A DNA stretch of 64,000 bases from Roseobacter sp. (GTDB taxonomy: Bacteria > Pseudomonadota > Alphaproteobacteria > Rhodobacterales > Rhodobacteraceae). Shown one piece after another: positions 4,301-22,482 of the stretch. The position numbers and the translations under genes were made by a program. The notes beneath the pieces were generated by a model, which was not told the origin of the DNA, did no database searches, and worked only from the letters and a program-made list of their open reading frames with translations. The stretch is from positions 472-64,471 of the forward strand of contig NZ_JBDVLG010000056.1 of the NCBI RefSeq assembly GCF_039970775.1, given 5' to 3'. Within the stretch, counting starts at the first letter, position 1, and every line of letters starts with the position of its first letter.

Positions 4301-5062
4301 TCAGGTGCGCGCCATCCAGCTTAGGGTTTCGTCTGTGGGTGCGGTGGGCTTGTATTCCGCCCCCAAAGGCCCGCGAAACCCCAATTTATCCACCAACCGA
4401 AAGATATGTGCATAGTTGATTTCGCCGGTATCCGGGGGCCCACGGTCAGGGACACTGGCAAATTGAATATGCCCGATCAACGGCAGCAAACGTTCAAGGC
4501 GGCGGCTCAGATCGCCCTCCATCAGTTGAACGTGGTAACAATCAAACATCAGCTTAAGGTTCGGCGCGCCGATCTCTTCGATAATCTGCTGGGCTTGCGC
4601 CGTTGTCGTCAGGAAATATCCCGGCGCGTCATAATGGTTTAACGGCTCAATCAATATTGAAATGCCATGGTGGCCCGCGGCTTCACAGGCGTATCGCAGC
4701 GCGCTGACAAAACACGCATGGGCCGCAGCGCCTTGGGCAAAACCGGCCATCACATGTATGTTTGCGGCCCCGATCTGGGCCGCATAGTGCACCGCCTCGT
4801 CGATCGCGGCGCGGGCCTCATATGTGCGCCCAACCAACGCCGACAGGCCATTGTCGCCCGCCGCCACGTCCCCGCGCCGGGTGTTCAACCCCAACATCGG
4901 CAACCCCGTTTCGGCCAGCGCCGCCACGACATCCTGCACAGGCACCTCGTATGGCCAATGACATTCCACCGCGTCAAACCCCGCAGCCTTGGCCGCACGA
5001 ATGGCATCGGGCAGGGGGCGGTCCGTCCAGAGAAACCCCAAATTCGCTGAAAACTGCGTCAT
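4301..5062 (-). CDS. otnI: 2-oxo-tetronate isomerase / hydroxypyruvate isomerase family
   Basis: FSANLGFLW, GFDAVE, IEPLN, FDCYHVQ and HIQFASVPDRG (Hyi family). The ATG at 5062 overlaps the otnC stop (ATGA), and the gene sits with otnK/otnC. Confidence 0.8.
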   Translation of the reverse strand: MTQFSANLGFLWTDRPLPDAIRAAKAAGFDAVECHWPYEVPVQDVVAALAETGLPMLGLNTRRGDVAAGDNGLSALVGRTYEARAAIDEAVHYAAQIGAANIHVMAGFAQGAAAHACFVSALRYACEAAGHHGISILIEPLNHYDAPGYFLTTTAQAQQIIEEIGAPNLKLMFDCYHVQLMEGDLSRRLERLLPLIGHIQFASVPDRGPPDTGEINYAHIFRLVDKLGFRGPLGAEYKPTAPTDETLSWMART

Positions 5063-5709
5063 GCGTCCCATTCCACGTCAAAATGCGTCACGATATCGGT
5101 GACCTGTTGGGGGCTCAGCATCCGCGCGTCATAGCCCCGCATCAACATCGCCAATCGCGCCGTATCTTCTAATTCTTCGATGGCATTGCAGGCGGCGTGC
5201 ACGTCCTTGCCCGCGACAACCGGCCCGTGATTGGCCAACATCACCGCGCTGCGTTTGCCCGCCAGCCCCCGCACCGCATCGCCCATGGCAGGGTCGCCCG
5301 GCCGGAAAAACGGCAACAGCTTGACCTTGCCCAGTTTCATAATCGCGTAAGGGGTAAGTGGGGGCAGAAAATTATCGGGATCCACGTCTGGCATCATCGA
5401 CCACGCGACCGAATGACATGCATGCAAATGCACCACCGCACCCGCGTTGCTGCGGGTGTCGTAAAACGCGGTGTGCAGGGGCATTTCTTTGGTGGGCGGG
5501 TCGCCGTCAATCAACCGCCCCTGCCCGTCAAACCGGCTCAGGCGTGCGGGGTCGAGCCGGCCAAAACTGGTGCCTGTGGGCGACACCAACAACCCGCCAT
5601 CCGGTGTGCGCGCCGAAATATTCCCCGTGCTGCCCCCCGTGAGGCCACGGTCAAACATCGATTTGGCCAGCAGGCAGATATCTTCGCGCAGGGTCACGTC
5701 GGCGGTCAT
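5059..5709 (-). CDS. otnC: 3-oxo-tetronate 4-phosphate decarboxylase (class II aldolase family)
   Basis: STGNISAR, PTKEMPLH, VVHLHACH and LANHGPVV; directly downstream of a DUF1537 kinase. Confidence 0.88.
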   Translation of the reverse strand: MTADVTLREDICLLAKSMFDRGLTGGSTGNISARTPDGGLLVSPTGTSFGRLDPARLSRFDGQGRLIDGDPPTKEMPLHTAFYDTRSNAGAVVHLHACHSVAWSMMPDVDPDNFLPPLTPYAIMKLGKVKLLPFFRPGDPAMGDAVRGLAGKRSAVMLANHGPVVAGKDVHAACNAIEELEDTARLAMLMRGYDARMLSPQQVTDIVTHFDVEWDA

Positions 5710-6974
5710 GTCAGATCCAGTTTTGAAAGGGCTTGGGCAAAGAACCCTTCGGCGCCAAAATTCCCCGATTTAAGCGCCAAGGCAATCATATGCCCCGCGC
5801 TGTGGCAATACGTCCAAGGAACACCGGGCGCGATTTCGGCGCCGACGTCAAGGCGCGACACGCCCAACGCCTGCGTCACTGCGCCCGACGTTTCGCCCCC
5901 CGCCACCACAAAACGGCGTGCGCCGCAGTCTCGGGCGACCAGCGCCAGACTGGCAAGCGCACGTTCCACCAATGCCCCCGCCGCACCCGCGCCCAATTCT
6001 GACTGGGCGGCGCGCACCGCATCGGGTTCGGCCGTTGCATAGACAAGCGGCGCCGCGGCAAGGTCTTGGTCGCGCAGCCAGTCTTCGGCGGCGGTGCTAC
6101 CGGTATGAAAGAGCGTCAGAGGGTCCAGCCGGTAACTGGGGGCCACCTTGGCGTAGGCCGCCACCTGCGCCCGTGTCATCGCAGAACAACTGCCCGACAA
6201 GACGACCCCACCCCCCCCCGCAGTGGGCGGCGCAGATTTAGCGGTATCGCCCGTTAACATCCCATCCGCCATGTATAACGCGGGCAAGGGCGCAGCGACC
6301 GCACTGCCCCCTGTTAGCAAGGGCATATCCCGGCAGGCAGACGCGATCAGATCCAGATCGGCGTTGGCGACCGCATCCACCACCACATGCCCGACACCGT
6401 CTAAGGCCAACTGCCCCAGCGCCGCCCGGATCGCATCTGCGCCCTGCGCCACGGTCAGCCGGTCCACCAGACCGGTTTGCCCCGTGACTTGCGGCGCCAG
6501 CAACCGCATCAGGCTGCTGTCACGCATCGGCGTCAGCGGGTGATCTTTCATCGGGCTTTCGGCCAAGGGCTGCTGCCCCACAAACAGGTGACCCATAAAG
6601 ATCGACCGCCCGTTTTCGGGGAACGCGGGGCAATAGATCGTTTGTGCCACCCCCAAATCGGCCATCAGGGCCTCGGCCACCGGGCCGATATTGCCGTCAG
6701 GCGTGCTGTCGAAGGTAGAGCAATACTTCCAGAAAAATCGCTTGGCCCCTGCGGCCTGCAACCACGCCAAAGCCGCGCGGCATTCGGCCACGGCGTCGGC
6801 CACAGGGCTGGTGCGGCATTTCAGGGCAATCACCTCAAAGGCCGCCGCGTCGGTGGGCGGGGCGTCGGGCACCCCGATCCGCAGCGAAACCTTGACCCCG
6901 CTGCGCGCCAACAGCCCGGCAAGATCCGTTGCCCCGGTGAAATCATCGGCGATACAGCCCAACACGGTGGTCAT
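5706..6974 (-). CDS. otnK: 3-oxo-tetronate kinase (DUF1537 / four-carbon acid sugar kinase)
   Basis: GCIADDFTGATD, WKYCSTFDST, LSGSCS, AGGETSG and ALKSGNFG. The likely start is MTTVLG at 6974; the track's 7106 start overlaps ltnD. Confidence 0.9.
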   Translation of the reverse strand: MTTVLGCIADDFTGATDLAGLLARSGVKVSLRIGVPDAPPTDAAAFEVIALKCRTSPVADAVAECRAALAWLQAAGAKRFFWKYCSTFDSTPDGNIGPVAEALMADLGVAQTIYCPAFPENGRSIFMGHLFVGQQPLAESPMKDHPLTPMRDSSLMRLLAPQVTGQTGLVDRLTVAQGADAIRAALGQLALDGVGHVVVDAVANADLDLIASACRDMPLLTGGSAVAAPLPALYMADGMLTGDTAKSAPPTAGGGGVVLSGSCSAMTRAQVAAYAKVAPSYRLDPLTLFHTGSTAAEDWLRDQDLAAAPLVYATAEPDAVRAAQSELGAGAAGALVERALASLALVARDCGARRFVVAGGETSGAVTQALGVSRLDVGAEIAPGVPWTYCHSAGHMIALALKSGNFGAEGFFAQALSKLDLT

Positions 6975-7005: not shown

Positions 7006-7899
7006 TCATGCATCCCCCGGCAGGACAAGCCCTGCATTGCGCGCATAAACCTTGGCCACCGCCGCATCATCTTCTGCACCCAGACCTTGGCCCGCAGCCG
7101 CCACAAATTGCTGCAACGCTGCGGCGGTCAATGGCGCGCTAAACTTGTCTGCCTTGGCGATGTCGAGCACGATCCCGAGATCTTTTAGCCAAATATCAAC
7201 CGCGCTATGGGGGGTATAATCCCCCGCAACAATATGCGGCGCACGGTTTTCCAACATCCAACTGGTGCCCGCGCATTTGCTGATCACATCGACAAAGGTT
7301 TCGGGTTTCACACCTTGCGTCATGCCAAAGGTCAGCGCTTCGGCCATGGTCGCGATATGCACGCCAGCCAACAGCTGATTGACCGCCTTCATCGCGGACC
7401 CCGCCCCCACATCGCCCAGCTGAAACACCGTCTCGGCACAGGCATCAAGGACCGCTGCCGCGGCTGCAAAGGCGTCTTTTGACCCCGCTGCCATCACCGA
7501 CAGCTGCCCTGACGCGGCCTTAACCGCACCGCCTGAAATCGGTGCATCAAGATAGTGCACCCCATATTCGGCCGACCGCGCGCCCAGATCACGCGCGACA
7601 TCGGGCGGGACCGTCGCACACGACACAACCACAGCGCCGGGTTTCAGCAAGGGCACCACGCCGTCCGCCCCAAACAACACCGTTTGGGTTTGCTGGGCGT
7701 TCAGGACCACCACAACAACCGTGTCCAGATCTGCGGCGACGTCGGGCAATGCCCCCTCAGCGCCCCCTTCGGCGATGAATTTGGCACATAGATCCGGGTC
7801 TAAGTCGACCCCGAACGTCGCATGCCCTTCGCGTAAAACGGACTGCGCGATGCCATATCCCATCGAGCCCAAACCAATCACGGCTGTCTTTTGCACCAT
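7006..7899 (-). CDS. ltnD: L-threonate dehydrogenase (beta-hydroxyacid dehydrogenase family)
   Basis: VIGLGSMG Rossmann motif, LDAPISGG and MKAVNQLLAGVHIA; context with otnK-otnC-otnI. Start at MVQKT (7899). Confidence 0.85.
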   Translation of the reverse strand: MVQKTAVIGLGSMGYGIAQSVLREGHATFGVDLDPDLCAKFIAEGGAEGALPDVAADLDTVVVVVLNAQQTQTVLFGADGVVPLLKPGAVVVSCATVPPDVARDLGARSAEYGVHYLDAPISGGAVKAASGQLSVMAAGSKDAFAAAAAVLDACAETVFQLGDVGAGSAMKAVNQLLAGVHIATMAEALTFGMTQGVKPETFVDVISKCAGTSWMLENRAPHIVAGDYTPHSAVDIWLKDLGIVLDIAKADKFSAPLTAAALQQFVAAAGQGLGAEDDAAVAKVYARNAGLVLPGDA

Positions 7900-8089: not shown

Positions 8090-9136
8090 CTATGGGCCCT
8101 CGGCAACACGCGCGGCCAGCGATATCTTTTGGCCAGATGCCGCAGATCTGTAAATCGCATCCTTGATCCGAATGACGGTCAGATAATCATGCGCTTGGTT
8201 TTCAACCGCGTGCCCGTGCAACACCGCCTGCACCACGTGGTTTTGTAGATGATACACACAATCGCCGCCGAAACCGCCCCACGTGTCAGGCGGCGATACC
8301 ATCACATGGGCCTGATCGCCCTGCGCCCGAAACTGCACCGCGCCGTCCCCTGTCAGGGTCAAAACCCCCTTGGATCCTTCAAACAACGCCTCGCCCATGG
8401 TGCGGCGGTGGTTATCGGCGGGGTGGTCGCAATGGCGGTTGCCATCCAGCACCGTGCGCACGCCATGCGGGTGGTCAAAGATCACAAAACCCGCGTCTTC
8501 GCCTGCAATCGCTGGGTTAATCTGGCGCAAATCCGCATAGACGGCGCTTGGGTTGCCAAACAGGAACCGGAAGGTATCGACCCAATGCACCCCGGTTTCG
8601 TGGATCAAAAACCGAGGCATCTGCTGGAAATAGGGCTGGCGGTCCAGATAGGCGTTTGGCCCCTGCCCGTCACCGGGCCGCACCCTGAAACACGCCTGAA
8701 GCGGGGTGCCAATGCGGCCTGCATCCAGTTGCGATTTGATGCACCGGTACCACGGCATAAACCTGAAATTCTCGTGTATGATCAGCGTTGCGCCCGCGGT
8801 TTCGGCCAGGTCTGCCAGAGCGGTGGCCGTGTCGATATCTAGGCAAAACGGTTTTTGGCAGATGATGGTTTTCACACCGGCGGCCACAGCGGCCCGGATT
8901 GTGTCGCGATGGCCTTCGGGAGGCAGAATGATATCAAGGATATCAGGCACCACCTGCGTCAACATGGCGTGCACATCCTCAAAGGCGGGCAGCCCCGTGG
9001 CCTGCGCCAGTTCGATATTGCGATCTGCGGCCCCCACGCAAGTAACCTGCGCAATGCGCGCCCATGCGTCATAATGAAACTGGCTGAAATACCCCGCACC
9101 AACGCAGGCAACGCGCAGCGCACCGTCTGACATCAC
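8090..9136 (-). CDS. Gfo/Idh/MocA family NAD(P)-dependent oxidoreductase
   Basis: VACVGAGYFS, ICQKPF, HENFRF and ETGVHWVD; translationally coupled to the upstream IPMDH-like gene. Confidence 0.88.
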   Translation of the reverse strand: MMSDGALRVACVGAGYFSQFHYDAWARIAQVTCVGAADRNIELAQATGLPAFEDVHAMLTQVVPDILDIILPPEGHRDTIRAAVAAGVKTIICQKPFCLDIDTATALADLAETAGATLIIHENFRFMPWYRCIKSQLDAGRIGTPLQACFRVRPGDGQGPNAYLDRQPYFQQMPRFLIHETGVHWVDTFRFLFGNPSAVYADLRQINPAIAGEDAGFVIFDHPHGVRTVLDGNRHCDHPADNHRRTMGEALFEGSKGVLTLTGDGAVQFRAQGDQAHVMVSPPDTWGGFGGDCVYHLQNHVVQAVLHGHAVENQAHDYLTVIRIKDAIYRSAASGQKISLAARVAEGP

Positions 9137-10224
9137 ACAGCCCTTAAGGCAGCGCGCACCGCATCTGCCGCCTGATCCGTCGTAGCCGCACCGCCAAGGT
9201 CGCGCGTCAAAGCGCCGCCTTGGGCAATCGCGGCTTCGGTCGCGGCCCGCAGGCGCACGCCATCAGCGCCCAGCGCGGCATTGTCGTACCGTGTCCCTAG
9301 CCAGTCCAACATCATCGCCCCCGACAAGATCATCGCAAAGGGGTTCGCCACCCCCTGCCCCGCGATATCGGGCGCGGACCCGTGGCAGGGTTGAAACACC
9401 GCATGATCCAGCCCGATGTCCGCCGATGGTGCAACGCCCAAGCCCCCCATCAGCCCAGCGCCCAGATCAGACAGGATATCGCCAAACATATTCTCCGTCA
9501 CCAACACGTCAAAATCCCATGGTTTTTGCACAAACCAAAGCGCTGTCGCGTCCACATAGGCGTGATCGCTGGTCAGGTCGGGGTGCTGCGTCGCCTCTTT
9601 ATCGAAAATCTCGCGGAAGAATGCAAAGGCGCGAAAGACGTTCGCCTTGTCGACGCAGGTCACGTGCCCCGGCCCGCGCCCGGTGTCTTTTCGGGTGCGC
9701 GCCATATCAAAGGCGAACTTGAACAACAGTTCAGACGTTTTGCGCGTGATCAACAGCGTCTCGCGCGCTTCGTTTTCGGTGACCTCGCCGCAGCCTTGGG
9801 TGTGAAACAACCCTTCGGTGCTTTCGCGGATCAACACGAAATCTACGGGTTTGTCATCCGGCAGGTTCAACGGGGTCTTTTGGCCCGGAAAAATCCGCAC
9901 AGGCCGCACACCAGCAAAGAGGTTTAGCGCCTTGCGCAGATCAATTTGCGGCGAGATTTCCGTCCCATCGGGATAGCGCACCGATGGTAACCCCATGGCA
10001 GATAACAAAATCGCATCCGCTCCGCGCGCGATCTGCATAGACGTGTCTGGCAAAGAGTGCCCCGTGTTCGCATAATGCGCAGCCCCCGCGGCACAACCGA
10101 TAAAATTTAGGCCATAGCCCCCCTGAACCGCCAGATCCGCCAAAATATCCAGCGTCGGACGGATGATTTCGGGGCCGATCCCGTCGCCTTCGAACACCGC
10201 AACATCAAACGTGTTTTTCATCAC
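9133..10224 (-). CDS. Isocitrate/isopropylmalate/tartrate dehydrogenase family protein, atypical (catalytic Tyr replaced by Phe)
   Basis: GDGIGPEI, LRK...VRP, VDKAN, ENMFGDILSD and PCHGSAPDIAG. It reads RESTEGLF where the family has RExTxGxY. Start is GTG 10224 or ATG 10221. Confidence 0.88.
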   Translation of the reverse strand: MMKNTFDVAVFEGDGIGPEIIRPTLDILADLAVQGGYGLNFIGCAAGAAHYANTGHSLPDTSMQIARGADAILLSAMGLPSVRYPDGTEISPQIDLRKALNLFAGVRPVRIFPGQKTPLNLPDDKPVDFVLIRESTEGLFHTQGCGEVTENEARETLLITRKTSELLFKFAFDMARTRKDTGRGPGHVTCVDKANVFRAFAFFREIFDKEATQHPDLTSDHAYVDATALWFVQKPWDFDVLVTENMFGDILSDLGAGLMGGLGVAPSADIGLDHAVFQPCHGSAPDIAGQGVANPFAMILSGAMMLDWLGTRYDNAALGADGVRLRAATEAAIAQGGALTRDLGGAATTDQAADAVRAALRAV

Positions 10225-10298
10225 TTATCGTGCCTCTTTGTATTTCAGCAGCAGTGCCCTAAGATCACTCAAGATTATCAGTAGCAGCGCATCACAAA

Positions 10299-10314
10299 TT
10301 AATGCATACATTAA
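10299..10314. promoter_or_regulatory. Palindromic operator in the divergent promoter of the IPMDH-like and ABM genes
   Basis: TTAATG-CATA-CATTAA, also a tandem TTAATGCAT x2. The core resembles GntR/FadR-type sites (inference). Confidence 0.6.
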
Positions 10315-10355
10315 TGCATGCGTAAATGAGCCCCAAGGCAGTTACAAGGATCCAT

Positions 10356-10646
10356 ATGTTTGCCGTCACGGTTACCCTGCACATCACACCCGCCCATTGG
10401 GATACCTTTGTGCCCCTTATGGCCCAGAACGCTGCACGGTCGCTGGCAGATGAAACGGGGTGCCACCAATTTGACGTCGCCACAGACCCGGCACACCCGC
10501 ATGAGATGTTTTTATACGAACTTTACACCGATGCCGCCGCCTTTGACGTGCATCTGAACACCGCGCATTTCAAAACCTTTGACACCAGCACGGCCCATAT
10601 GATCGCCGATAAAACCGTGCGGACCTACGCACAGGTGGTCCAATGA
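10356..10646 (+). CDS. ABM-domain protein (putative quinol monooxygenase / LsrG-like)
   Basis: ETGCHQFDV, FLYELYTDAAAFDVHLNTAHF; AAGGA RBS before ATG 10356. Confidence 0.82.
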   Translation: MFAVTVTLHITPAHWDTFVPLMAQNAARSLADETGCHQFDVATDPAHPHEMFLYELYTDAAAFDVHLNTAHFKTFDTSTAHMIADKTVRTYAQVVQ

Positions 10647-11449
10647 CCGACTGGGAGGTCTTTGCAGTCAAATACGCCGACCGCAATGCCCGCACGCGCG
10701 GTGACAGTTTTGTATTTGATGACACCCCTGACGTGCCCCATCCGATGGATTATTTCATGTGGGTGCTGCGGCGCGGGGCCGAAACCATTTTGGTCGACAC
10801 CGGTTATGACATGCACGAAGCCACCCGCCGCGACCGCCCCATTCGTCAGGACCCGGTTGTGTCGCTTGCGCCATTGGGCGTGCGCCCCGAGGCAATCACA
10901 TCGGTGATTGTGACTCACCTACACTATGATCACGCGGGCGGGCTGCATTTGTTCCCCAACGCCAAACTACACATGCAGACGGCGGAAATGGCCTATGCCA
11001 CGGGCCCCTGCATGTGCCATGACACGCTAAACATGCCCTACACAGCGGGTCACATCTGCGAGGCGGTTAAACGTCTATTTTCGGGGCAGGTCGTGTTTCA
11101 CGATGGCGATGCGCAGATCGCGGATGGCGTCACGGTGCATTGCATTGGCGGGCACAGCCGTGGTTTGCAGGCCGTGCGGGTGCGCACCGCTGCGGGTTGG
11201 TTGGTTCTGGCCTCTGATGCGACGCATTTTTACGAAAACATCTTTGCGCGCAAACCGTTCCCCATTGTCGTCGATCTGCAAAATATGCTCGATGGGTTTA
11301 ACCGGCTGGAAACGCTGGCCTCGCATAAATCGCTGATCGTGCCGGGGCACGACCCGCTGGTGACGCGCGCCTACCCAAAAGCCATGGCCGATCACATCTG
11401 GCGTCTGGATCACGGGCCCACCGCGCCCGAGCTGTTTTTACCCGCCTGA
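10643..11449 (+). CDS. Metallo-beta-lactamase-fold lactonase (N-acyl homoserine lactonase family)
   Basis: ILVDTG, THLHYDHAGG (HxHxDH), GGHSRG, LASDATH and VPGHD; ATGA coupling with the ABM gene. Confidence 0.85.
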   Translation: MTDWEVFAVKYADRNARTRGDSFVFDDTPDVPHPMDYFMWVLRRGAETILVDTGYDMHEATRRDRPIRQDPVVSLAPLGVRPEAITSVIVTHLHYDHAGGLHLFPNAKLHMQTAEMAYATGPCMCHDTLNMPYTAGHICEAVKRLFSGQVVFHDGDAQIADGVTVHCIGGHSRGLQAVRVRTAAGWLVLASDATHFYENIFARKPFPIVVDLQNMLDGFNRLETLASHKSLIVPGHDPLVTRAYPKAMADHIWRLDHGPTAPELFLPA

Positions 11450-11488: not shown

Positions 11489-11595
11489 CCTTGCGCCTCG
11501 CGCGCTTTGGGGAAATCTCTGCTCTGGTCAAATGCGAGGCCACATGTGACATTAGCGTCCGAAATGAGGCTGGTAAGGACCAAAAAGACGTGCTG

Positions 11596-12411
11596 ATGCG
11601 ACCTGCAACATTGCTGGATCAGCCACGTGCGATCGGGTCTGCGATGGTGTCCAGCAAAGCGCGCGCCGGGCAGCCCTGTCTGGATGGGTTGTATCAGGCC
11701 GGGGCGCTCAAGGTCGTCTTTCCGCGCAACCACCACACCGTCGAGAGCATTTTGGTCAACACCGCCGGTGGCATCACCGGGGGGGATCGGTTTGACATCA
11801 CAGCCACCGCCGGCGCGGGATCGCATCTGACGCTGGCCACCCAAGCCGCCGAACGCGCCTATCGCGCACAGGACGGCCAAACCGGCCAACTGCACACACA
11901 GCTGACCGTCGAAGACGACGCGCAATTGCACTGGCTGCCGCAAGAAACCATCCTATTCGAAGGGTCCGCGCTATCACGCACGCTGAACGTCGACATCGCC
12001 CCCACGGGTCGGTTTTTGATGGTCGAACCGGTGCTGTTTGGCCGCCGCGCCATGGGTGAAGATCTGCACAGCGCCAGCTTTCGCGACAGGGTCGATATCC
12101 GCATGGACGGTGCGCTGGTGTACCGCGATGGTGTGGCCCTCGACGGGGATATCGCCGCCGCATTGGACCGCCCCGCGATTGGGGCAGGCGCGCGCGCGAT
12201 GGCCAATGTGGTGTGGGTCGCCCCCGAAGCCGAAGGGGCCCTGCCCATCGTGCGTGACCTCATTGGCCCCATCGGTGGTGCAAGCCTACTGCAGCCAAAT
12301 TTATTGGCCGCACGGCTGTTGGCCGCAGACGGGTTTGACCTGCGCCAACGGCTTGTGCCGTTGCTCGACCACCTGACAAAAAACACCTTACCGATAAGCT
12401 GGAGACTGTAA
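11596..12411 (+). CDS. ureD: Urease accessory protein UreD
   Basis: NTAGGITGGDRF, QAAERAYRA and WLPQETILF; first gene of the ure cluster. Probable start 11596. Confidence 0.92.
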   Translation: MRPATLLDQPRAIGSAMVSSKARAGQPCLDGLYQAGALKVVFPRNHHTVESILVNTAGGITGGDRFDITATAGAGSHLTLATQAAERAYRAQDGQTGQLHTQLTVEDDAQLHWLPQETILFEGSALSRTLNVDIAPTGRFLMVEPVLFGRRAMGEDLHSASFRDRVDIRMDGALVYRDGVALDGDIAAALDRPAIGAGARAMANVVWVAPEAEGALPIVRDLIGPIGGASLLQPNLLAARLLAADGFDLRQRLVPLLDHLTKNTLPISWRL

Positions 12412-12414
12412 CCC

Positions 12415-12717
12415 ATGCAGCTGACACCCCGCGAAAAAGACAAACTACTGGTGGCGATGGCCGCCCAAGTCGCGCGCACCAGATTGGCGCGCGGCGTCAA
12501 GCTCAACCACCCCGAGGCCATCGCGTTGATCACCGATGCGGTCGTCGAAGGTGCGCGCGATGGTCGGTCCGTCGCGGACATGATGCAGGCGGGCGCCCAA
12601 GTGATCACCCGTGATCAATGCATGGAAGGCGTGCCCGAAATGATCCACGACGTGCAGGTCGAGGCAACGTTTCCCGATGGCACCAAACTGGTCACAGTCC
12701 ACAACCCGATCCGCTAG
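12415..12717 (+). CDS. ureA: Urease subunit gamma
   Basis: [12 protein letters not shown]...[17 protein letters not shown]. Confidence 0.98.
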
Positions 12718-12746
12718 GACTGACCTATTTTCAAGAGGATAATGCT

Positions 12747-13052
12747 ATGATCCCAGGCGAAATCATACCCCAAGACGGCGAGATCATCCTGAACGCCGAC
12801 GCCGTGGCCGTCACTGTGATGGTCGCCAACACCGGCGACCGCCCGGTACAGGTCGGCAGCCACTATCACTTTGCCGAAAGCAACCCCGCGTTGGACTTTG
12901 ACCGCGATATCGCACGCGGTTGCCGGTTGGACATCGCCGCAGGCACCGCCGTACGGTTTGAACCCGGCCAGCGCCGCGAAGTGCAGTTGATCCCGCTGTC
13001 CGGCGCGCGCCGGGTCTTTGGGTTCAACCAACAGGTGATGGGCGATCTATAA
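12747..13052 (+). CDS. ureB: Urease subunit beta
   Basis: MIPGE...[15 protein letters not shown]...[15 protein letters not shown]; GAGGA RBS before 12747. Confidence 0.97.
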
Positions 13053-13120
13053 ACGCCCCCCTCCACAGACATGTTATTTTGATATCGCCTGACCGCGACC
13101 CGAAACCAGAAAGGTACATC

Positions 13121-14830
13121 ATGCCAGCACCCATTTCGCGCGCGAATTACGCCGCCATGTTCGGCCCCACCACCGGCGACAAGGTTCGTCTGGCCGATAC
13201 CGACCTGATCATTGAGGTAGAACGCGACTTCACCACCTACGGCGAAGAGGTCAAATTTGGCGGCGGCAAGGTGATCCGCGATGGCATGGGGCAAAGCCAA
13301 GTCACACGCGCAGGTGGGGCTGTCGATACGGTCATCACCAACGCGCTGATCGTGGACCATAGCGGGATCTACAAGGCAGACGTGGGCCTGAAAAACGGGC
13401 GTATCCACAAGATCGGCAAGGCGGGCAACCCCGACACACAACCCGGTGTGGATATCATCGTTGGCCCTGGCACCGAGGCGATCGCGGGGGAAGGCCGGAT
13501 TTTGACGGCAGGTGGTTTTGACAGCCACATCCACTTTATCTGCCCACAGCAGATCGACGATGCGCTGCATTCCGGCGTGACCACCATGTTGGGCGGCGGC
13601 ACCGGCCCCGCACATGGCACGCTGGCCACCACCTGCACGCCCGGGCCTTGGCACATCGGACGGATGCTACAGGCCGTTGACGGGTTTGCCATGAACATCG
13701 GCGTATCAGGCAAAGGCAACGCCAGCCAACCCGCCGCATTGGTCGAGATGGTCGAGGGCGGTGCCTGCGCCATGAAGTTGCACGAAGACTGGGGCACCAC
13801 GCCTGCCGCCATCGATTGCTGCCTGTCGGTGGCCGATGACATGGACGTGCAGGTGATGATCCACACCGATACGCTCAATGAATCCGGGTTCGTGGAAAAC
13901 ACGGTTGCCGCCCTAAAAGGCCGCACGATCCACGCGTTTCACACCGAAGGCGCGGGCGGCGGCCATGCCCCGGATATCATCAAGATCTGCGGCGACGCGA
14001 ATGTTTTACCATCGTCCACCAACCCGACGCGGCCCTTTACCGTTAATACCTTAGAAGAACATCTGGATATGTTGATGGTGTGCCACCATCTGGACAAATC
14101 GATCCCCGAAGATGTCGCCTTTGCCGAAAGCCGGATCCGCCGCGAAACCATCGCCGCCGAAGATATCCTGCATGATATGGGTGCGTTTTCGATCATCGCC
14201 TCTGACAGCCAAGCGATGGGCCGCGTGGGCGAGGTGTTGATCCGCACATGGCAAACCGCCGACAAGATGAAGAAACAGCGTGGGCGACTGGCGGATGAAA
14301 CCGGCGAAAACGACAACCTGCGTGTGCGTCGGTACATCGCGAAATACACGATTAACCCGGCGATTGCACATGGGGTGTCCCATGAAATCGGCAGCATCGA
14401 GGAAGGCAAGCGCGCCGATCTGGTGTTGTGGAACCCTGCGTTTTTCGGCGTGAAGCCCGAGATGGTCCTGATGGCGGGCACGATTGTCTGCGCGCAAATG
14501 GGCGACCCCAATGCGTCGATCCCCACACCCCAGCCCGTTTATAGCCGGCCCATGTTCGGTAGCTTTGGGCGGTCGGTCGAACACTCTGCCATCACCTTTG
14601 TCAGCGCCGCCGCCGAGGCCGCTGGTCTGCGCGACACGTTGGGCCTGCGCAAACAGGTGGTCGCCGTGAAAAACACCCGTGGCATTGGCAAAAAAGACCT
14701 GATCCTAAATGACGCCCTACCCCATATCGAGGTCAACCCCGAGACCTACGAGGTGCGTGCCGATGGTGAACTACTCACCTGCCAACCCGCCGAAGTGCTG
14801 CCCATGGCGCAGCGGTATTTCATGTTTTGA
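13121..14830 (+). CDS. ureC: Urease subunit alpha
   Basis: [17 protein letters not shown] (carbamylated Lys), HTDTLNE, MVCHHL and SDSQAMGR; start MPAPISR at 13121. Confidence 0.98.
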
Positions 14831-14935
14831 GGTCCGAGTAGGAACCAACGGTGTCTTTGCCACGCGCAAAAGGAACAAGTTGCGCCCTATATTTCTGGCC
14901 CTCGATACAGCGCCTTTTGTCCGTCTTAACCGCGA

Positions 14936-15442
14936 GTGAACATGCTGACCGCCCAAAAAATCACCCACACTCATGACGCCGATGATCACGTCACGCTCGA
15001 CTACGACGCGCGGTTTTTGCGGCGCAAAGTGCTGATGACCGACAAAGGCGATCATGTGCTGGTCGACCTGCCCAAAACGACGTCCCTGAATGCGGGCGAT
15101 GCCTTCGAGGCCACAAACGGCACCCTCATCGGCATTGTCGCGGCCCCTGAGCCCCTGCTGGAAATCACCGGACAGGACCTGCACCGCATCGCGTGGCACA
15201 TCGGCAACCGGCACACCCCCTGCCAGATCGAAACAGACCGTCTGTTGATCCAACAAGACCACGTAATGGCCAGTATGTTGGCGCAACTGGGTGCGCATGT
15301 GCTTGATGTTGTGGAACCTTTCACCCCCGAAGGCGGTGCTTACGGGCACGGGCGCACCCATGGGCACGACCATTCTGCGCAACACGGGCCAGATCATATG
15401 CATGACCACGGGCATAGTCATGGGCACAGCGATGACGACTGA
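14936..15442 (+). CDS. ureE: Urease accessory protein UreE (Ni chaperone, His-rich tail)
   Basis: RFLRRKVL, AWHIGNRHTP and PFTPEGGAYG, plus a His-rich C-terminus. Confidence 0.95.
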   Translation: MNMLTAQKITHTHDADDHVTLDYDARFLRRKVLMTDKGDHVLVDLPKTTSLNAGDAFEATNGTLIGIVAAPEPLLEITGQDLHRIAWHIGNRHTPCQIETDRLLIQQDHVMASMLAQLGAHVLDVVEPFTPEGGAYGHGRTHGHDHSAQHGPDHMHDHGHSHGHSDDD

Positions 15443-16073
15443 TGCGATCCTGACGTTGACGCAATGGCTGTCGCCTGGGTTTCCTGTGGGGGCGTTTGCC
15501 TATTCGCATGGGTTGGAAACTGCGATTGCGACGATGCAATTGAAAACAATCGGAGATCTGGGCGATTGGCTCGAAGATCTGGTCGCCTTTGGCGGGGGGC
15601 ACGCCGATCTGGTGATTTTGGCGGCGGCCTACCGCGCCCGTCCACCTGAAGTGGCGCAGATCGACGCCACCGCGCGCGCCTTTGCCGCCAGCGCCGACCG
15701 GCTGCTTGAAACCGACCAGCAAGGGGCCGCCTTTGCCCGCACGGTCGATGCCGTTTGGGGCACAGATCTGGGGCCCCTGACATATCCGGTTGCGGTGGCT
15801 CGCGCCGCGCGGTCGCAAGACATCGCGCTGGATGTAACCGCCCGCATGTATTTGCACGCCTTTGCCGCCAATTTGATTTCTGCATCGGTGCGGCTGGTGC
15901 CTTTGGGCCAGACAGACGGGCAGCGTCTTTTGGCCACGCTGGCGCCCCTGATCACCGCCACAACCGAACGTGCTTTGGCCACCGCGCTTGATGATCTTGC
16001 CGCGCCGTGTTTTGCGGCCGACATTGCGGCGATGCAGCATGAAATACTCTATTCAAAGGTCTTTCGTACATGA
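15432..16073 (+). CDS. ureF: Urease accessory protein UreF
   Basis: [32 protein letters not shown]-terminal HE..YSKVFRT; start MTTD at 15432. Confidence 0.95.
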
Positions 16074-16693
16074 ACTTGAACGGTCCACTTCGTATTGGCA
16101 TCGGGGGCCCCGTTGGCGCCGGAAAGACCACCTTGACGGCCTGTCTGGCCCGCGCATTGGGCCCGGATCATTCCATCGGCGTGATCACCAATGACATCTA
16201 CACCCAAGAAGACGCGGACGCCTTGATGCGGATGCAGGTGCTGCCACACGACCGCATTATCGGGGTCGAAACCGGCGGCTGCCCGCACACGGCGATCCGC
16301 GAAGATGCGTCGATCAATCTGGCCGCCGTGGCCGAAATGCAAACCCGCCACCCCGAGGTTGAGGCGATCTTGATTGAAAGCGGCGGTGACAATCTCAGCG
16401 CGACGTTTTCGCCGGAACTGGCGGATGTCACGCTATATGTGATCGATGTGGCCGCGGGCGAAGAGATCCCCCGCAAGGGCGGCCCCGCGATCACCCGCTC
16501 GGATATTTTGATCATCAACAAAACAGACCTTGCGCCACATGTCGGGGCCAGTCTGGATGTGATGCGCCAAGACGCTGACCGCATGCGCGCCGGACGGCCA
16601 TTTTTCTTTACGGCGCTTCGACATGGAGATGGGTTAGACGCGGTGATTGACGCCCTGCGTCAGGTGTCTGGACTAGGCCTCGTCGAGGCGTAG
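16070..16693 (+). CDS. ureG: Urease accessory GTPase UreG
   Basis: [23 protein letters not shown] and NKTD. Confidence 0.97.
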
Positions 16694-16888: not shown

Positions 16889-17902
16889 CTAAGGTGCTGC
16901 CAAAGACCCCCGAGCGATAAACTCTGTCGGCAGCTCAACCGACACCGCATCCGCGCCACCGTTCAGCTTGGCCAACAAAGCACGCGCCGCAGCTCGGCCC
17001 ATTTCGGTCTGTGGAACTCGAACCGTTGCAAGAGGCGGCGTGACAACAGAGGCCAACCCAATATCGTCGAACCCGACCAACGACAGCTGCCCCGGCACAT
17101 CAACGCCCATGTCTCGTGCCCGCATCAAAGCCCCCGTCGCCAAAACGTCGTTCCCACAAATCACGACGGTGGGCCGCGCATCTGATGTCATGATGCGTTC
17201 AAACGCTTCGGCACCGTATTCCAACCGATATTTCGCCTCTTCTGAGTGCACCAAAACGGCGCCCTGATCATGCGCCGCAATAGCGTCGATCACCCCCTGA
17301 TACCGATCCGATGCACGGTCATTCCCCGCGTGCGGGCCAGAGATCATTGCGATCCGCCGGTGTCCCAGCCCCAAAACACGACGGGTCGCGTCAAAAGCCG
17401 CCTTGTGGTTGTCAAAACCGATGCAAAGCTGGTCAATATCGGGGCGAAAATACCATGAAATAACATGCGGCACCCGTCGCTTGGCCAAGAAATCTCGGGT
17501 CGCTTGGGGACGGGCCTGACCAATCAACATCAGCCCATCAGCGCCATGGGCAATCAAAGCCTTGATCTGCCGGAATTCCTGATCCGGATCGTCTGCAGTC
17601 GTGGCCAAAAGCAAGTTCACACCTGCCTCGGACAACGCCTCCTGGAAGGCTTGGACCCCCGTTGCAAACATCGCATTTGCCATGCTGGGAATGATCGCGC
17701 CAACTGTATTGGTCCGGTTTGAGGCCAGCGCGCGCCCGCCAAAATTTGGCGTATACCCCAAGGTTTCGATCGCACGTTCGATCTTGACACGCGTTGGTTT
17801 GGCAACCTTATCGGGGTCATTAAGAGCCCGCGATATACTGGCGGTGGACACGCCCGCCATGCGGGCGACGTCTTCTAAAGTGGGCGCGGTAATTTTGGTC
17901 AT
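16889..17902 (-). CDS. LacI-family transcriptional regulator of the DHPS locus (HpsR-like)
   Basis: PTLEDVARMAGVSTASISRAL HTH, LGYTPN and GFDDI; divergent from hpsN. Start MTKIT at 17902. Confidence 0.92.
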   Translation of the reverse strand: MTKITAPTLEDVARMAGVSTASISRALNDPDKVAKPTRVKIERAIETLGYTPNFGGRALASNRTNTVGAIIPSMANAMFATGVQAFQEALSEAGVNLLLATTADDPDQEFRQIKALIAHGADGLMLIGQARPQATRDFLAKRRVPHVISWYFRPDIDQLCIGFDNHKAAFDATRRVLGLGHRRIAMISGPHAGNDRASDRYQGVIDAIAAHDQGAVLVHSEEAKYRLEYGAEAFERIMTSDARPTVVICGNDVLATGALMRARDMGVDVPGQLSLVGFDDIGLASVVTPPLATVRVPQTEMGRAAARALLAKLNGGADAVSVELPTEFIARGSLAAP

Positions 17903-18002
17903 AATCAATTTATAGCGTGCTTTGTGCCGGATGGCTTCCGTTTTCGGAAAAATACACAACATATTGAATTAAAACAATAAACTTATATCTTGCGCGAATC
18001 TA

Positions 18003-18016
18003 TGTAAGCGCTTACA
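18003..18016. promoter_or_regulatory. LacI-type operator
   Basis: Perfect palindrome TGTAAGCGCTTACA with a central CG, between the LacI gene and hpsN. Confidence 0.82.
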
Positions 18017-18149
18017 AAAATAGTTAACGCGAGACACTTAACTTCGTTTCACGGCGACACCCCCGCATAAAAGGCGTCGGCCATTTGACCGGCCCTCGTG
18101 GATGGCGCCGGTTACACCCACGACCCCGATGATCAGATAGGACCCTTTC

Positions 18150-19457
18150 ATGGCGCGCGCATATCTTAAGAAAGCTCAGAAAACTGCGATGACGGATGCG
18201 GGCGATGTGCGCGCGACCGTTCAGGACATTCTGGATGATATCGAGGCTGGCGGCGACGCGACGGCCCTGAAATACGCGCAGAAATTCGACAATTATCAGG
18301 GCCGCACCGTGCTGGGCGAGGAAGAGATCGCAGCGGCATCTGTCCTTGTGTCGCAAAAGCTGAAAGATGACATCGCGTTTGCGCATGACAACGTGCGCCG
18401 CTTTGCGGAGGTCCAGAAATCCACGATGACCGACGTGGAACTAGAAGTCGTGCCGGGGCTGATCGCGGGTCAAAAGGCCATCCCCTGCCGAGCGGCAGGT
18501 TGCTATGTTCCTGGTGGGCGGTACAGCCACATCGCCAGCGCCATCATGACGGTAACAACCGCCAAAGTGGCCGGTTGCCAAAACATCACAGCCTGTTCGC
18601 CCCCCCGCGCTGGCGAAGGCATCGCGCCCGCGATCATCTATGCGGCCAATCTGTGCGGCGCCGACAAGATCCTGTCCATGGGCGGCGTGCAAGGCGTTGC
18701 CGCGATGACCTTTGGCCTGTTTGGCCTTCCCAAGGCGGATATTTTGGTCGGGCCCGGCAACCAGTTTGTAGCCGAAGCCAAACGCATTCTTTTTGGCCGC
18801 GTCGGCATCGACATGATCGCAGGGCCTACCGACAGCCTGATTTTGGCGGATCACAGCGCCGACCCCTTCATTGTGGCAACAGATCTGGTTGGACAAGCCG
18901 AACATGGGTATAACTCGCCAGTTTGGTTGGTGACAGACAACCGCGCGCTGGCCGAAAAGGTGATGGAAATTGTTCCAAACCTGATCGCCGACCTACCAGA
19001 ACTGAACCGCACCAATGCAGAAGCCGCCTGGCGCGACTATGCAGAAGTCATCATCTGCGACACCCCCGAAGAAATGGCAGCCTGTTCTGATGATTACGCC
19101 CCCGAACACCTGACCGTGCAGGCGGAAAACCTGCCCTGGTGGTTAGACCGGTTGCAATGCTACGGATCGTTGTTTTTGGGCGAAGAAACCACCGTGGCCT
19201 TTGGCGACAAGGCCTCTGGCACCAACCATGTTTTGCCCACGTCGCAATCAGCGAAATATACCGGCGGCCTGTCGGTGCACAAATACATGAAAATCGTCAC
19301 TTGGCAGCGATCTACACGGGACGGCGCGCGCCCCATCGCCGAGGCCACGGCGCGCATTTCGCGGTTGGAAGGCATGGAAGGGCACGCGCGGTCGGCGGAT
19401 GCGCGGTTGCACAAATACTTCCCGGATGAAAATTTCGACCTGTCAGCGCGGGATTGA
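18150..19457 (+). CDS. hpsN: Sulfopropanediol (DHPS) 3-dehydrogenase, histidinol dehydrogenase homologue
   Basis: HisD fold with YVPGGRYSHIASA, QAEHGYNSP, DKASGTNHVLPT and EGMEGHAR, matching the roseobacter HpsN type as recalled; followed by hpsO/hpsP-type genes. Confidence 0.9.
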   Translation: MARAYLKKAQKTAMTDAGDVRATVQDILDDIEAGGDATALKYAQKFDNYQGRTVLGEEEIAAASVLVSQKLKDDIAFAHDNVRRFAEVQKSTMTDVELEVVPGLIAGQKAIPCRAAGCYVPGGRYSHIASAIMTVTTAKVAGCQNITACSPPRAGEGIAPAIIYAANLCGADKILSMGGVQGVAAMTFGLFGLPKADILVGPGNQFVAEAKRILFGRVGIDMIAGPTDSLILADHSADPFIVATDLVGQAEHGYNSPVWLVTDNRALAEKVMEIVPNLIADLPELNRTNAEAAWRDYAEVIICDTPEEMAACSDDYAPEHLTVQAENLPWWLDRLQCYGSLFLGEETTVAFGDKASGTNHVLPTSQSAKYTGGLSVHKYMKIVTWQRSTRDGARPIAEATARISRLEGMEGHARSADARLHKYFPDENFDLSARD

Positions 19458-19463
19458 ACCCAG

Positions 19464-20216
19464 ATGACCGCGCTCTTTGATGTGTCTGGCAAAACAGCCT
19501 GCGTGACCGGGGCCAGCAGCGGCCTTGGCCGTCAGGCGGCGCGGCGGTTGGCCGAAGCCGGGTGCCGGGTCGTCGGGGTGGCACGGCGCGGCGATCAGTT
19601 GGCTGAATGGCAATCCCAAACCAACGGGGATACCGCCGCAGTGACCGCGGATTTGTCGGACCGATCTGCTTTGGGTGACGTTGCTTCGGCTGTGTCAGCA
19701 CCCTTTGGGACAATCGACATTCTGGTGAATGCAGCAGGTATCAACACCCGCCAACACGCCGATGACGTCACCGACAATGGTTGGGATCTAACGCTCGATC
19801 TAAACCTCGCGGCGCCCTTCTTTTTGGCCCAAAAACTGGTGCCCGGCATGAAAACGCGCGGATGGGGGCGGATCATCAATTTTGCGTCGCTGCAATCGCA
19901 ACGCGCCTTTGCAAACGGCATCAGCTATGGCGCGTCAAAGGGTGCGGTCGAACAAATGACCCGCGCCATGGCCGAAGCATGGTCTGGCAACGGGATCACC
20001 GCAAACGCGTTGGCCCCCGGATTTTTCCGCACCGAATTGACCGGCCCCGTCTTTGCCGACCCAGTTCTGGCGCAACGCAACGCCGATCAAACATGCATCG
20101 GGCGCAACGGCGAACCAGCAGACCTAGACGGCCCGCTTATGTTCTTTTGTTCTGACGCCTCTGCTTATGTGACCGGCCAAACATTGTTCGTCGACGGGGG
20201 GTTCACCGCAAAATGA
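19464..20216 (+). CDS. hpsO: SDR dehydrogenase (HpsO-type DHPS 2-dehydrogenase)
   Basis: TGASSGLG, NAAG and YGASK; position directly after hpsN. Confidence 0.78.
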   Translation: MTALFDVSGKTACVTGASSGLGRQAARRLAEAGCRVVGVARRGDQLAEWQSQTNGDTAAVTADLSDRSALGDVASAVSAPFGTIDILVNAAGINTRQHADDVTDNGWDLTLDLNLAAPFFLAQKLVPGMKTRGWGRIINFASLQSQRAFANGISYGASKGAVEQMTRAMAEAWSGNGITANALAPGFFRTELTGPVFADPVLAQRNADQTCIGRNGEPADLDGPLMFFCSDASAYVTGQTLFVDGGFTAK

Positions 20217-21220
20217 AAGCGCTTGTTTATACCGGTGTCAAAGAGCTGTCATATATGGACCGCCCCATGCCCCAACCGCAAGACGATGAGGTGTTGGTTC
20301 GGGTCATGGCATCTGGCATCTGCGGGTCGGATATGCACGCGTACCTGGGGCATGACGCCCGCCGCCCCGCGCCGCTGACCTTGGGCCACGAAGCCGCAGG
20401 TGTGGTGGTGGGCGGCCCGGACGATGGCCGCCGCGTGACGATCAACCCGCTGGTGGCGTGCCAAGCCTGCGGGTTGTGCGACACCGGTCGCGAAAACCTA
20501 TGCGCCAGACGCCAGATTATCTCGATGCCACCGCGTCAGGGCGCCTTTGCCGACTATGTCACCATGCCGCCGCGCAACCTGATCACTGTGCCAGACCACA
20601 CGCCCCTGACACATGCAGCGCTGGCTGAACCCATCGCCTGCGGCTGGCACGGGGTGCGGCTTGGGCGCGGTGTTCTGACCTGCGATCTGTCTTCGGCACG
20701 GACTGTGGTGATCGGCGGCGGCGCGATTGGCGTTGGCGCGGCATTGTCGCTGGCCGCACAAGGGGTGGGTGATATCACCTTGATCGAACCAAACGAGACG
20801 CGGCGTGCGCATCTGGCTGATATCGCAGGGTTTGAGGTTTGCGGCCCAGACGAGCCCGCGATGCCTGCCGAAGGGTCAGCGGATATTGTGATTGATGGCG
20901 TTGGTTTTGCCACCACGCGGGCATCGGCCAGTACGATTGCGCGCGCCGGTGGGGTGATCGTGCACATCGGGCTTGGCGAGGCCACCGGGGGCCTCGATAT
21001 ACGGCGGATGACCTTGCAAGAAATCACGTTCATCGGCACCTACACCTACACCGCTCGGGATTTTGCAGAAACAGCAGCCGCTATATTTGACGGCCGTTTG
21101 GGCAAACTCGACTGGATCGAAACGCGCCCCTTGTCAAAGGGGCACAGGGCCTTCAAAGACATCCGCGCAGGCCATGTCCCCGCCCCAAAAGTCATTTTGA
21201 CCCCCGAACACGACGCGTGA
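20213..21220 (+). CDS. hpsP: Zn-dependent alcohol dehydrogenase (HpsP-type)
   Basis: GICGSD, GHE, CQACGLC...C structural Zn and GGGAIG; coupled to hpsO. Confidence 0.78.
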   Translation: MKALVYTGVKELSYMDRPMPQPQDDEVLVRVMASGICGSDMHAYLGHDARRPAPLTLGHEAAGVVVGGPDDGRRVTINPLVACQACGLCDTGRENLCARRQIISMPPRQGAFADYVTMPPRNLITVPDHTPLTHAALAEPIACGWHGVRLGRGVLTCDLSSARTVVIGGGAIGVGAALSLAAQGVGDITLIEPNETRRAHLADIAGFEVCGPDEPAMPAEGSADIVIDGVGFATTRASASTIARAGGVIVHIGLGEATGGLDIRRMTLQEITFIGTYTYTARDFAETAAAIFDGRLGKLDWIETRPLSKGHRAFKDIRAGHVPAPKVILTPEHDA

Positions 21221-21424
21221 CAACGGGCATACTAACTAGCAGATGCGCGCCAGAAAGACCATTGATATGCACATGGACCCGGTGATCCTGCCACCACCAT
21301 ACCAAAGACGCGGTTGCTTTTTAGGGCACGCAGGGTGGCGCGTTCTGGGCTGTGCGCCCCGACCTTTCCCTTTCATACGTTAACAGCGCTGCTGCATCAG
21401 CGCCTCACCACAAGGAGTACTTAG

Positions 21425-21931
21425 GTGTCCATCAGTAGTAAGATTGTGGATGACTTCGTTGCCAGCGGCATCGATTTTGTCACCACTGTACCATGCAAAC
21501 AATTGGCCGGCGTGATCGAAGACATTGAGGCCCGCAAAGAGATCTTCCATATTCCGTCCAACAAAGAAGACGAAGGCATGGGCCTGTGCGCCGGCGCCTA
21601 TATGGGCGGCAAGCGCCCTGCGATCATCATGCAAAACACCGCCATCGGTGTGACCATCAACACATTGGTCACCCTGACGCAGTTCTACCGGATGCCCCTG
21701 CCGATGTTGATTTCCTATCGCGGTGAACTGCGCGAGCCGGTCGCCTGTCAGGTGGAAATGGCCGTGCACACCAAAGCGCTGCTGAACCAATTGCTGATCC
21801 CGACGTATCATTTTCACAAGGAATCCGACGCAGAAGAACTGCCCGAGATCCTGAAATACTCTTTCATGTGCAATAAACCTGTGGCGATCCTGACGGATGC
21901 GTCCTTCTGGGGAGGCTACGGCGACCAATGA
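21425..21931 (+). CDS. comD: Sulfopyruvate decarboxylase subunit alpha
   Basis: GTG start after an AAGGAG RBS; TVPC, NKEDEGMGLCAG, MQNTAIG and SYRGE; sulfonate context. Confidence 0.85.
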   Translation: MSISSKIVDDFVASGIDFVTTVPCKQLAGVIEDIEARKEIFHIPSNKEDEGMGLCAGAYMGGKRPAIIMQNTAIGVTINTLVTLTQFYRMPLPMLISYRGELREPVACQVEMAVHTKALLNQLLIPTYHFHKESDAEELPEILKYSFMCNKPVAILTDASFWGGYGDQ

Positions 21932-22482
21932 TCCGTTCTGAAATCCTGAAAGACATCGCCCCGATCCTGCGCGACCAACTGGTGATCTGTAACATCGGCA
22001 TCCCCAGCCAAGAGCTGCACGCCATCGATGATCAGCCCACAAATTTCTACATGCTGGGTACGATGGGCTTGGCCTCGTCGATTGGTCTTGGTGTGGCGCT
22101 GGCACAATCCAAACCCGTGATCGCGATCGATGGGGATGGGTCGATTTTGACCAACATGGGCACCTTGCCAACCATCGCCAACAACGTCGCAAATAACTTC
22201 ATCCTGATGATCATCGACAATGGATCTTATGGATCCACCGGCGATCAACCCACCTATGCCGGTAAGAAAACATCACTGGCCAAAGTGGCCGAAGCCTGCG
22301 GATGCGAGCGGGTGATTGAATGCAAAGACGTCGATACCGGGCGCGTCCTGCAAGAGGCGTTGGACAGCGGCGAGATGACGGTCATGGTCGTGAAATGCGA
22401 CAGTGGCAACGCCAAGATGCCGGTGATCACCATGGACCCTGTCGTGATCCGCGACCGGTTTATGACGTCGGTTAAGGCCTAA
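21928..22482 (+). CDS. comE: Sulfopyruvate decarboxylase subunit beta (ThDP-binding)
   Basis: FYMLGTMG, IDGDGS...DNG ThDP motif and STGDQPT; coupled to comD. Confidence 0.85.
   Translation: MIRSEILKDIAPILRDQLVICNIGIPSQELHAIDDQPTNFYMLGTMGLASSIGLGVALAQSKPVIAIDGDGSILTNMGTLPTIANNVANNFILMIIDNGSYGSTGDQPTYAGKKTSLAKVAEACGCERVIECKDVDTGRVLQEALDSGEMTVMVVKCDSGNAKMPVITMDPVVIRDRFMTSVKA

Follow-up and report, generated by a model that had tools for sequence, protein, structure and literature searches.

A conserved IPMDH/ICDH-family clade with phenylalanine at the catalytic tyrosine position lies inside an orphan sugar-acid gene module of Roseobacter and other bacteria

The 64,000-nucleotide stretch of a Roseobacter sp. 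contig analyzed here (the window; NZ_JBDVLG010000056.1) encodes an IPMDH/ICDH-family dehydrogenase in which phenylalanine occupies the position of the catalytic tyrosine, and both the enzyme and the clade to which it belongs are real and conserved, the enzyme being a variant form within a known family and part of an orphan pathway for a sugar acid. Judged from its residues and its gene context, the chemistry of the enzyme probably differs from that of its well-known relatives, as an initial annotation of the locus had proposed.

Family assignment of the dehydrogenase

The gene and its altered active-site codons are located as follows.

9133..10224, minus strand: Iso_dh (IPMDH/ICDH/TDH-family) dehydrogenase of the Phe139/Gln277/Gly104 clade, with start GTG at 10224 or ATG at 10221
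9805..9807, minus strand: Phe139, codon TTT, at the catalytic Tyr position by alignment to the family
9391..9393, minus strand: Gln277, codon CAA, at the Glu of EPxHGSAP (T. thermophilus E270)
9910..9912, minus strand: Gly104 codon at a conserved Asn (T. thermophilus N102), likewise specific to the clade

The gene is a single minus-strand open reading frame of 362–363 amino acids with 0 internal stops (residues are numbered on the 362-aa form). Its product scores 287 bits against PF00180 (gathering cut-off 27), which places it in the Iso_dh superfamily, and its AF2 model (pLDDT 97) matches 4F7I and 3FLK at TM-scores of about 0.9 and 33–38% identity. At the same time, it falls below the cut-off of all 16 NCBIfam models that it resembles, including those for LeuB (TIGR00169, 239.6 bits, cut-off 353.2; PRK03437, 249.2, cut-off 393), for tartrate/D-malate dehydrogenases (TIGR02089, 245.6, cut-off 470.4; PRK08194, 221, cut-off 501), and for AksF, PRK08997 and ICDH, where the top score, from AksF as the best-scoring NCBIfam model, was 297 against 540 (AksF and ICDH cut-offs are 500–540). 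Membership of the LeuB, TtuC/DmlA, AksF and ICDH families was ruled out by these cut-offs and, by profile scores, the protein is an Iso_dh member in none of the superfamily's named functional families. The initial annotation had likewise held that it is not LeuB, and a canonical leuB of the same genome lies on another contig (C63); this was the sole other Iso_dh-family gene found in the genome, with no partner paralogue detected. An Atlas search with the dehydrogenase returned automatic family names only, and our literature search, in the partial literature it covered, found no study on the Phe/Gln clade.

Comparison with the closest known enzymes shows which parts are shared. Like LeuB of T. 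thermophilus (4F7I and 2Y41; TM 0.88–0.90, 37–38% identity), the dehydrogenase has three Args, the Lys, three metal Asps and the NAD-type Asp of HGSAPD, whereas LeuB Tyr139, Glu270 and Asn102 are Phe, Gln and Gly here, a side-chain-pocket residue is polar, and the context is catabolic. TtuC/DmlA (3FLK; TM 0.90) are also catabolic and act on hydroxy acids, but share 33% identity, keep Tyr and Glu (RENTEGEY), and have TKSN and SLWG motifs. A dimeric ICDH (6M3S) is the best Foldseek match and has in common with the dehydrogenase a polar residue four positions before the first Arg; AksF and ICDH, however, keep Tyr and Glu, and the module in the window is without aconitase-type partner genes.

Active-site changes and what is retained

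In the motifs R132-E-S-T-E-G-L-F139 and Q277-P-C-H-G-S-A-P, Phe139 falls on the family Tyr and Gln277 on the family Glu, both gap-free in HMMER alignments to solved IPMDH and ICDH chains, so that the two substitutions read by the initial annotation (Phe, codon TTT, for the catalytic Tyr, and QPCHGSAP for EPxHGSAP) are borne out. Its reading that the substrate Args, the Lys and the metal Asps are kept also holds (R96, R106 and R132; K192; D224, D248 and D252), and the NAD-type D285 is retained as well. A third active-site change, absent from that annotation, is G104, which replaces the ANLRP Asn (Gly in 93% of clade sequences, Asn in 95% of those outside). Gln92 (PQIDLR), four residues N-terminal of Arg96, is polar where IPMDH has Leu, and the Glu/Leu/Leu side-chain pocket of LeuB is not present. 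Arg82 was considered as a distal carboxylate ligand and set aside; a hairpin salt bridge with Glu88 is possible.

Across 60 diverse clade sequences, the redox residues are 97–100% kept, Tyr stands at 0% and Phe at 60/60, and the Lys-Tyr catalytic pair characteristic of beta-decarboxylating dehydrogenases is accordingly missing from all of them; the outgroup for these counts was 84 Tyr/Glu sequences, which are 100% Tyr by group definition. In 2009, Aktas and Cook reportedly assigned two roles to the family Tyr, contact with the beta-carboxylate and protonation of the enol. IPMDH variants mutated at this Tyr keep a few per cent of their activity, which indicates that Phe alone leaves decarboxylation possible. 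In the Iso_dh family, hydride transfer from C2 is driven by Lys and metal, the latter of which also promotes decarboxylation (PMC8468904).

Distribution and ancestry of the clade

RESTEGLF and QPCHGSAP are both present in 119 of 119 top homologues (74–84% identity). More distant genome loci, to about 45% identity, still have Phe and Gln; these come from Alpha- and Betaproteobacteria, Acidobacteria, Planctomycetes and other groups. The Phe139 codon across fetched loci is TTC in 62 and TTT in 30 and, with both motifs in all of the top homologues and two Phe codons in use, the substitution is neither chance nor decay; the possibility raised initially, that the Phe is private to this strain, is thereby put aside. 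Within the host family, Rhodobacteraceae, the Phe enzyme occurs in 31 of 150 sampled genomes, related genomes among which are not independent samples, and Phe-clade modules are also found on Rhizobium and Sulfitobacter plasmids.

In a tree built without the two diagnostic columns, the Phe group is recovered as one clade, but with a UFBoot of only 38 at its base, against 100 each for the proteobacterial core and the acidobacterial group, and FastTree with the diagnostic columns included gives 0.97 for the Phe/Gln clade. The Phe group adjoins a Tyr+Gln sister group in the trees, which indicates that Gln arose first. As to whether Phe and Gln define a conserved clade, a check suggested by the initial annotation, Phe is clade-wide, but the two changes were not one event, since Gln also occurs in the Tyr-bearing sister group. 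One sequence nested in the Phe clade (L036, 515–1621) shows an apparent reversion to Tyr, with DKSG for DKAN; no module genes were seen in its vicinity. His occupies position 92 (PHLRLR) in a second Phe subclade (L045 and L138–L154, e.g., L142, L146 and L153), which is about 48% identical to the window protein and retains the same partner genes. Two genomes (G003 and G019) have two clade members each.

Gene module in the window

The dehydrogenase gene is situated upstream of ltnD-otnK-otnC-otnI, and the genes for an ABM-fold and a lactonase-like protein run divergently from it.

8090..9136, minus strand: Gfo/Idh/MocA oxidoreductase (Gfo), whose start overlaps the dehydrogenase stop; best PDB match 5UHW
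10356..10646, plus strand: ABM-fold, LsrG-like small protein, candidate ketol isomerase in place of OtnI
10643..11449, plus strand: lactonase-like protein of the metallo-beta-lactamase fold, its gene overlapping the ABM gene by 4 nt
7006..7899, minus strand: ltnD, L-threonate 2-dehydrogenase (NF043037, 404.9 bits, cut-off 350)
5706..6974, minus strand: otnK, 3-oxo-tetronate kinase (NF043035, 537 bits, cut-off 350)
5059..5709, minus strand: otnC, 3-oxo-tetronate 4-phosphate decarboxylase (NF043034, 291 bits, cut-off 250)
4301..5062, minus strand: otnI-like 2-oxo-tetronate isomerase (NF043033, 284 bits, below the cut-off of 325)
10298..10327, no strand: A/T-rich palindrome separating the two divergent gene pairs, a candidate operator for a regulator of the GntR family

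Against the OiaK model, the window's otnK scores 101 (cut-off 700), and the ABM protein scores 40.6 bits against the LsrG model PRK10486 (cut-off 135), with which it shares the fold family only. Of 25 close loci, 13 have an upstream ATGCAT core. An unlinked GntR-family gene (C44, 73623–74282) is 60% identical to the module regulator of other genomes, and its product would likely act on the palindrome at 10298–10327.

Several neighboring features were also noted. A urease operon (11491–16693) directly follows the lactonase gene, as it also does in Roseobacter fucihabitans (L158), and in L148 a Phe-clade gene has urease accessory genes as neighbors. Between the Gfo gene and ltnD, R. fucihabitans has an aspartate-dehydrogenase-like gene (L158, 12127–12936; PF03447 and PF01958), and the window has a 190-base gap. 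Further along, 16889–22482 holds a LacI regulator, a histidinol-dehydrogenase-like gene, an SDR, a zinc dehydrogenase and two ComD/ComE-like genes and, recognized from translations, looks like a DHPS/sulfolactate catabolic cluster.

Conservation of the module

Across 68 Phe-clade loci flanked by 4 kb or more on both sides, some of them close kin, tblastn with the module proteins (which can miss distant ones) found Gfo in 46, lactonase in 45, ABM in 46, otnK in 25, a TRAP/TTT carrier in 31 and GntR in 39, and found no module genes in 15 Tyr/Glu loci used for comparison. Among the sampled genomes of the host family, a Gfo orthologue is present in 30 of 31 carriers versus 3 of 119 others, and OtnK in 29 of 31 versus 29 of 119. 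Three unrelated folds serve as the lactonase in different loci (metallo-beta-lactamase, SMP-30 and amidohydrolase), and a distant locus (L156) has a VOC protein in the ABM/isomerase slot. The kinases of module loci pass the OtnK cut-off, not that of OiaK.

In the otnK-bearing loci, an ABM gene is present in 25 of 25 and otnI in 3 of 25, and 20 of 25 are without LtnD, DenD or OtnI, which favors a putative OtnI role for the ABM protein. A Sulfitobacter plasmid carries a compact module without ltnD, denD or otnI. At the genome level, replacement of DenD or LtnD by the dehydrogenase was considered and rejected, as there is no anti-correlation and both are enriched in carriers (DenD in 27 of 31, LtnD in 21 of 31, both in 19 of 31, with the window's genome having both).

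Variants of the module were found elsewhere. In Rhizobium/Agrobacterium, Gfo and lactonase give way to a sugar ABC carrier, an extended SDR, a HAD protein and an aldehyde dehydrogenase; in these loci (L017, L019, L083 and L084), the HAD is of type II, HAD and extended SDR are duplicated together in L019, and tkt, fbp, fba, tpi and rpiB stand beside the module in L084. In Streptomyces (L060, 6266–11081; L061, 6145–9086), an Asp/Glu racemase-family gene and a xylose-isomerase-like gene accompany a Tyr+Gln Iso_dh of a separate lineage, which otnK-otnC follow in L060, a second orphan route into OtnK.

Proposed function

From the observed residues, fold, conservation, gene module, and OtnK/OtnC family membership, we infer the following reactions and their order. 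On balance, we lean toward the dehydrogenase being a homodimeric NAD+- and Mn/Mg-dependent C2-dehydrogenase for a (2R)-hydroxy sugar acid without a beta-carboxylate, which would release the 2-oxo acid, with CO2 lost downstream and the ABM protein replacing OtnI. The Gfo enzyme would oxidize a furanose to a lactone, and the lactonase would open it to a 2-hydroxy acid; the dehydrogenase would then form the 2-oxo acid, with Lys192 as base, three Asps holding the metal and the Args holding C1. The ABM protein may next move the carbonyl to C3, in place of OtnI, before OtnK phosphorylates and OtnC decarboxylates the product to DHAP. Tyr would be dispensable in such a reaction, since neither of its jobs (beta-carboxylate holding and enol protonation) would be needed.

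Several lines of evidence argue for this oxidation without decarboxylation. A sugar dehydrogenase and a lactonase yield a 2-hydroxy acid, which suits the retained half of the active site, and a pathway with its own isomerase slot and its own decarboxylase is most simply read as needing C2 oxidation alone. TtuC oxidizes L-tartrate without decarboxylation, so the scaffold is able to stop at the oxo acid. In two genomes (G032 and G118), the module is complete but no DenD or LtnD was found, which also supports C2 oxidation by the Phe enzyme. As for the end product, the kinases being OtnK rather than OiaK, and neither RpiB nor a second TPI being found in the window's genome (90%-complete), favor DHAP over erythrulose phosphate, and a route via 3-oxo-isoapionate and erythrulose phosphate was set aside on the same grounds.

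The known tetronate pathway (LtnD/DenD-OtnI-OtnK-OtnC) and its bypasses through Ltn3D and ApnO use the same kinase and decarboxylase (PMC12994016, PMC13753588), and the logic of 2-oxidation followed by isomerization (PMC12994016) is common to it and to the route proposed here. It differs in that its entry dehydrogenases have other folds, OtnI is a TIM barrel and not ABM, and no Gfo/lactonase front end is described there. The oxidative D-apiose pathway (ApsD, ApnL, ApnO, OiaK) has a similar order of dehydrogenase, lactonase, oxidation and DUF1537 kinase, but here the Gfo is a distant match with Arg for Tyr232, an OtnK stands in the place of OiaK, and RpiB was not detected.

Some observations count against our preferred reading. 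The three carboxylate-binding Args and the Lys are retained as in decarboxylating members, and loss of decarboxylation is not forced. DenD and LtnD are frequent enough in carriers that the dehydrogenase would often be redundant were the substrate a tetronate, although redundancy of such dehydrogenases is known from Ltn2D with Ltn3D (PMC12994016). The Tyr-bearing Iso_dh preceding otnK-otnC in Streptomyces shows, further, that Phe is not required to feed OtnK.

Candidate substrates

The match of Gfo to 5UHW is distant (118 bits); we take 5UHW to be the D-apiose dehydrogenase ApsD, an enzyme for a 3-C-branched furanose, with a substrate site presumably made up of Gln165, Asp178, His182 and Tyr232, the last of these a substrate contact. 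At these positions, Gfo keeps Gln and His and has Glu for Asp and Arg for Tyr, and this Arg234 is present in 53 of 53 covered orthologues where 5UHW has Tyr232. TRAP/TTT carriers (31 of 68 loci) and the invariant Arg234 together suggest that the sugar is already anionic or acid, although the transporter argument is weakened by the many modules, the window's included, without a linked transporter; the binding proteins of the TRAP and ABC systems had only distant PDB matches, which indicated no ligand. The acid-sugar substrate proposed in the initial annotation finds support in gene context. OtnK and OtnC take C5 and C6 acids in vitro (PMC12994016), so that chain length is not set by these two.

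A pentarate from a pentauronate, the 3-oxo form of which would lose CO2 to give 3-oxo-tetronate, is a tentative candidate; it resembles isocitrate with OH for the beta-carboxylate, which fits the lost Tyr and the polar Gln92, but no pathway or abundant source for pentarate was found in the literature searched. A tetronate from a tetrose appears less likely, and a longer or branched aldonate somewhat less so again; D-erythronate and L-threonate are simple substrate candidates. Equally tentatively as for the pentarate, the clade may be a dedicated non-decarboxylating IPMDH/ICDH branch at the center of an undescribed C5 uronic acid route, with the LsrG-like protein as a new ketol isomerase, in which pentauronate would be converted to pentarate, then to 2-oxo- and 3-oxo-pentarate, 3-oxo-tetronate and, finally, DHAP.

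Alternative explanations

The retained Args, Lys and Asps would also suit an oxidative beta-decarboxylase acting on a 3-hydroxy-branched C5 diacid, e.g., 3-(hydroxymethyl)tartrate from a 3-C-carboxy-tetrose, where the enediol left by decarboxylation would not be protonated at C3 without Tyr, and ABM or Lys192 would turn it into 3-oxo-tetronate. Such an enzyme, the strongest of the rivals though doubtful, would account for coexisting DenD and LtnD and is consistent with the carboxylate transporters in modules, with the apiose-type nearest solved relative of Gfo and its change of Tyr232 to an invariant Arg, and with the Rhizobium version, whose sugar ABC carrier is joined by an aldehyde dehydrogenase as a possible source of the second carboxylate. 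Against it, loss of Tyr removes the beta-carboxylate contact, and the Gfo–5UHW match is distant. We know of no abundant natural 3-C-carboxy-tetrose, and aceric acid, which fits an apiose-type Gfo with an extra Arg, was rejected by reasoning on its wrong C2 configuration and its missing terminal hydroxyl, needed by OtnK.

Coupled chemistry in one site appears unlikely, whether as an oxidoisomerase with the 3-oxo acid as its immediate product, a decarboxylase with catalytic NAD+, or oxidation of D-apionate followed by formaldehyde loss to an oxo-tetronate. PdxA-family ClxD is one precedent on such substrates. ApnO (PMC13753588) is another, and both the resemblance of Gfo to 5UHW and the aldehyde or alcohol dehydrogenases adjoining some clade members are compatible with such coupling. 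However, nearly every module has a separate small isomerase-type gene, for which a one-site oxidoisomerase would have no use, and the kinase type and the absence of a detected RpiB in the genome also speak against it.

We give still less credence to a generalist D-malate/tartrate/3-alkylmalate dehydrogenase in which Tyr-to-Phe is tolerated and mechanistically meaningless. The fold and most site residues are canonical, the clade contains the apparent reversion to Tyr, and the family does include generalists such as DmlA (cited in PMC11353897), but the protein lies far under the TTC, DmlA-type, leuB, AksF and ICDH cut-offs, Phe is fixed in the clade in both codons, and malate or tartrate products do not need OtnK.

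A non-catalytic or regulatory subunit is highly improbable. Yeast NAD-IDH offers a natural precedent, since its regulatory subunit IDH1 has Phe at the same position, but IDH1 is non-catalytic, functions as part of a hetero-oligomer and no longer has one of the Args and two of the metal Asps, whereas the full redox site is retained here and the only further family member found is LeuB, on another contig. Decay or sequencing error private to the window's genome, for which nothing was found in favor, is rejected, as the motifs are common to all 119 close homologues and to relatives of several phyla.

Significance

The Lys-Tyr pair is treated as a hallmark of the family, and a large natural clade that retains the redox site but has fixed Phe offers a direct test of the role of the Tyr. 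Thousands of clade proteins probably carry a mistaken annotation as 3-isopropylmalate dehydrogenase. The conserved module would constitute a complete, assayable orphan pathway into DHAP, and the identity of its substrate would name a sugar acid consumed by marine and soil bacteria and give functions to four orphan families. If the C5 uronate route holds, it would represent an unrecognized carbon source for about one fifth of the sampled genomes of the host family and for soil bacteria.
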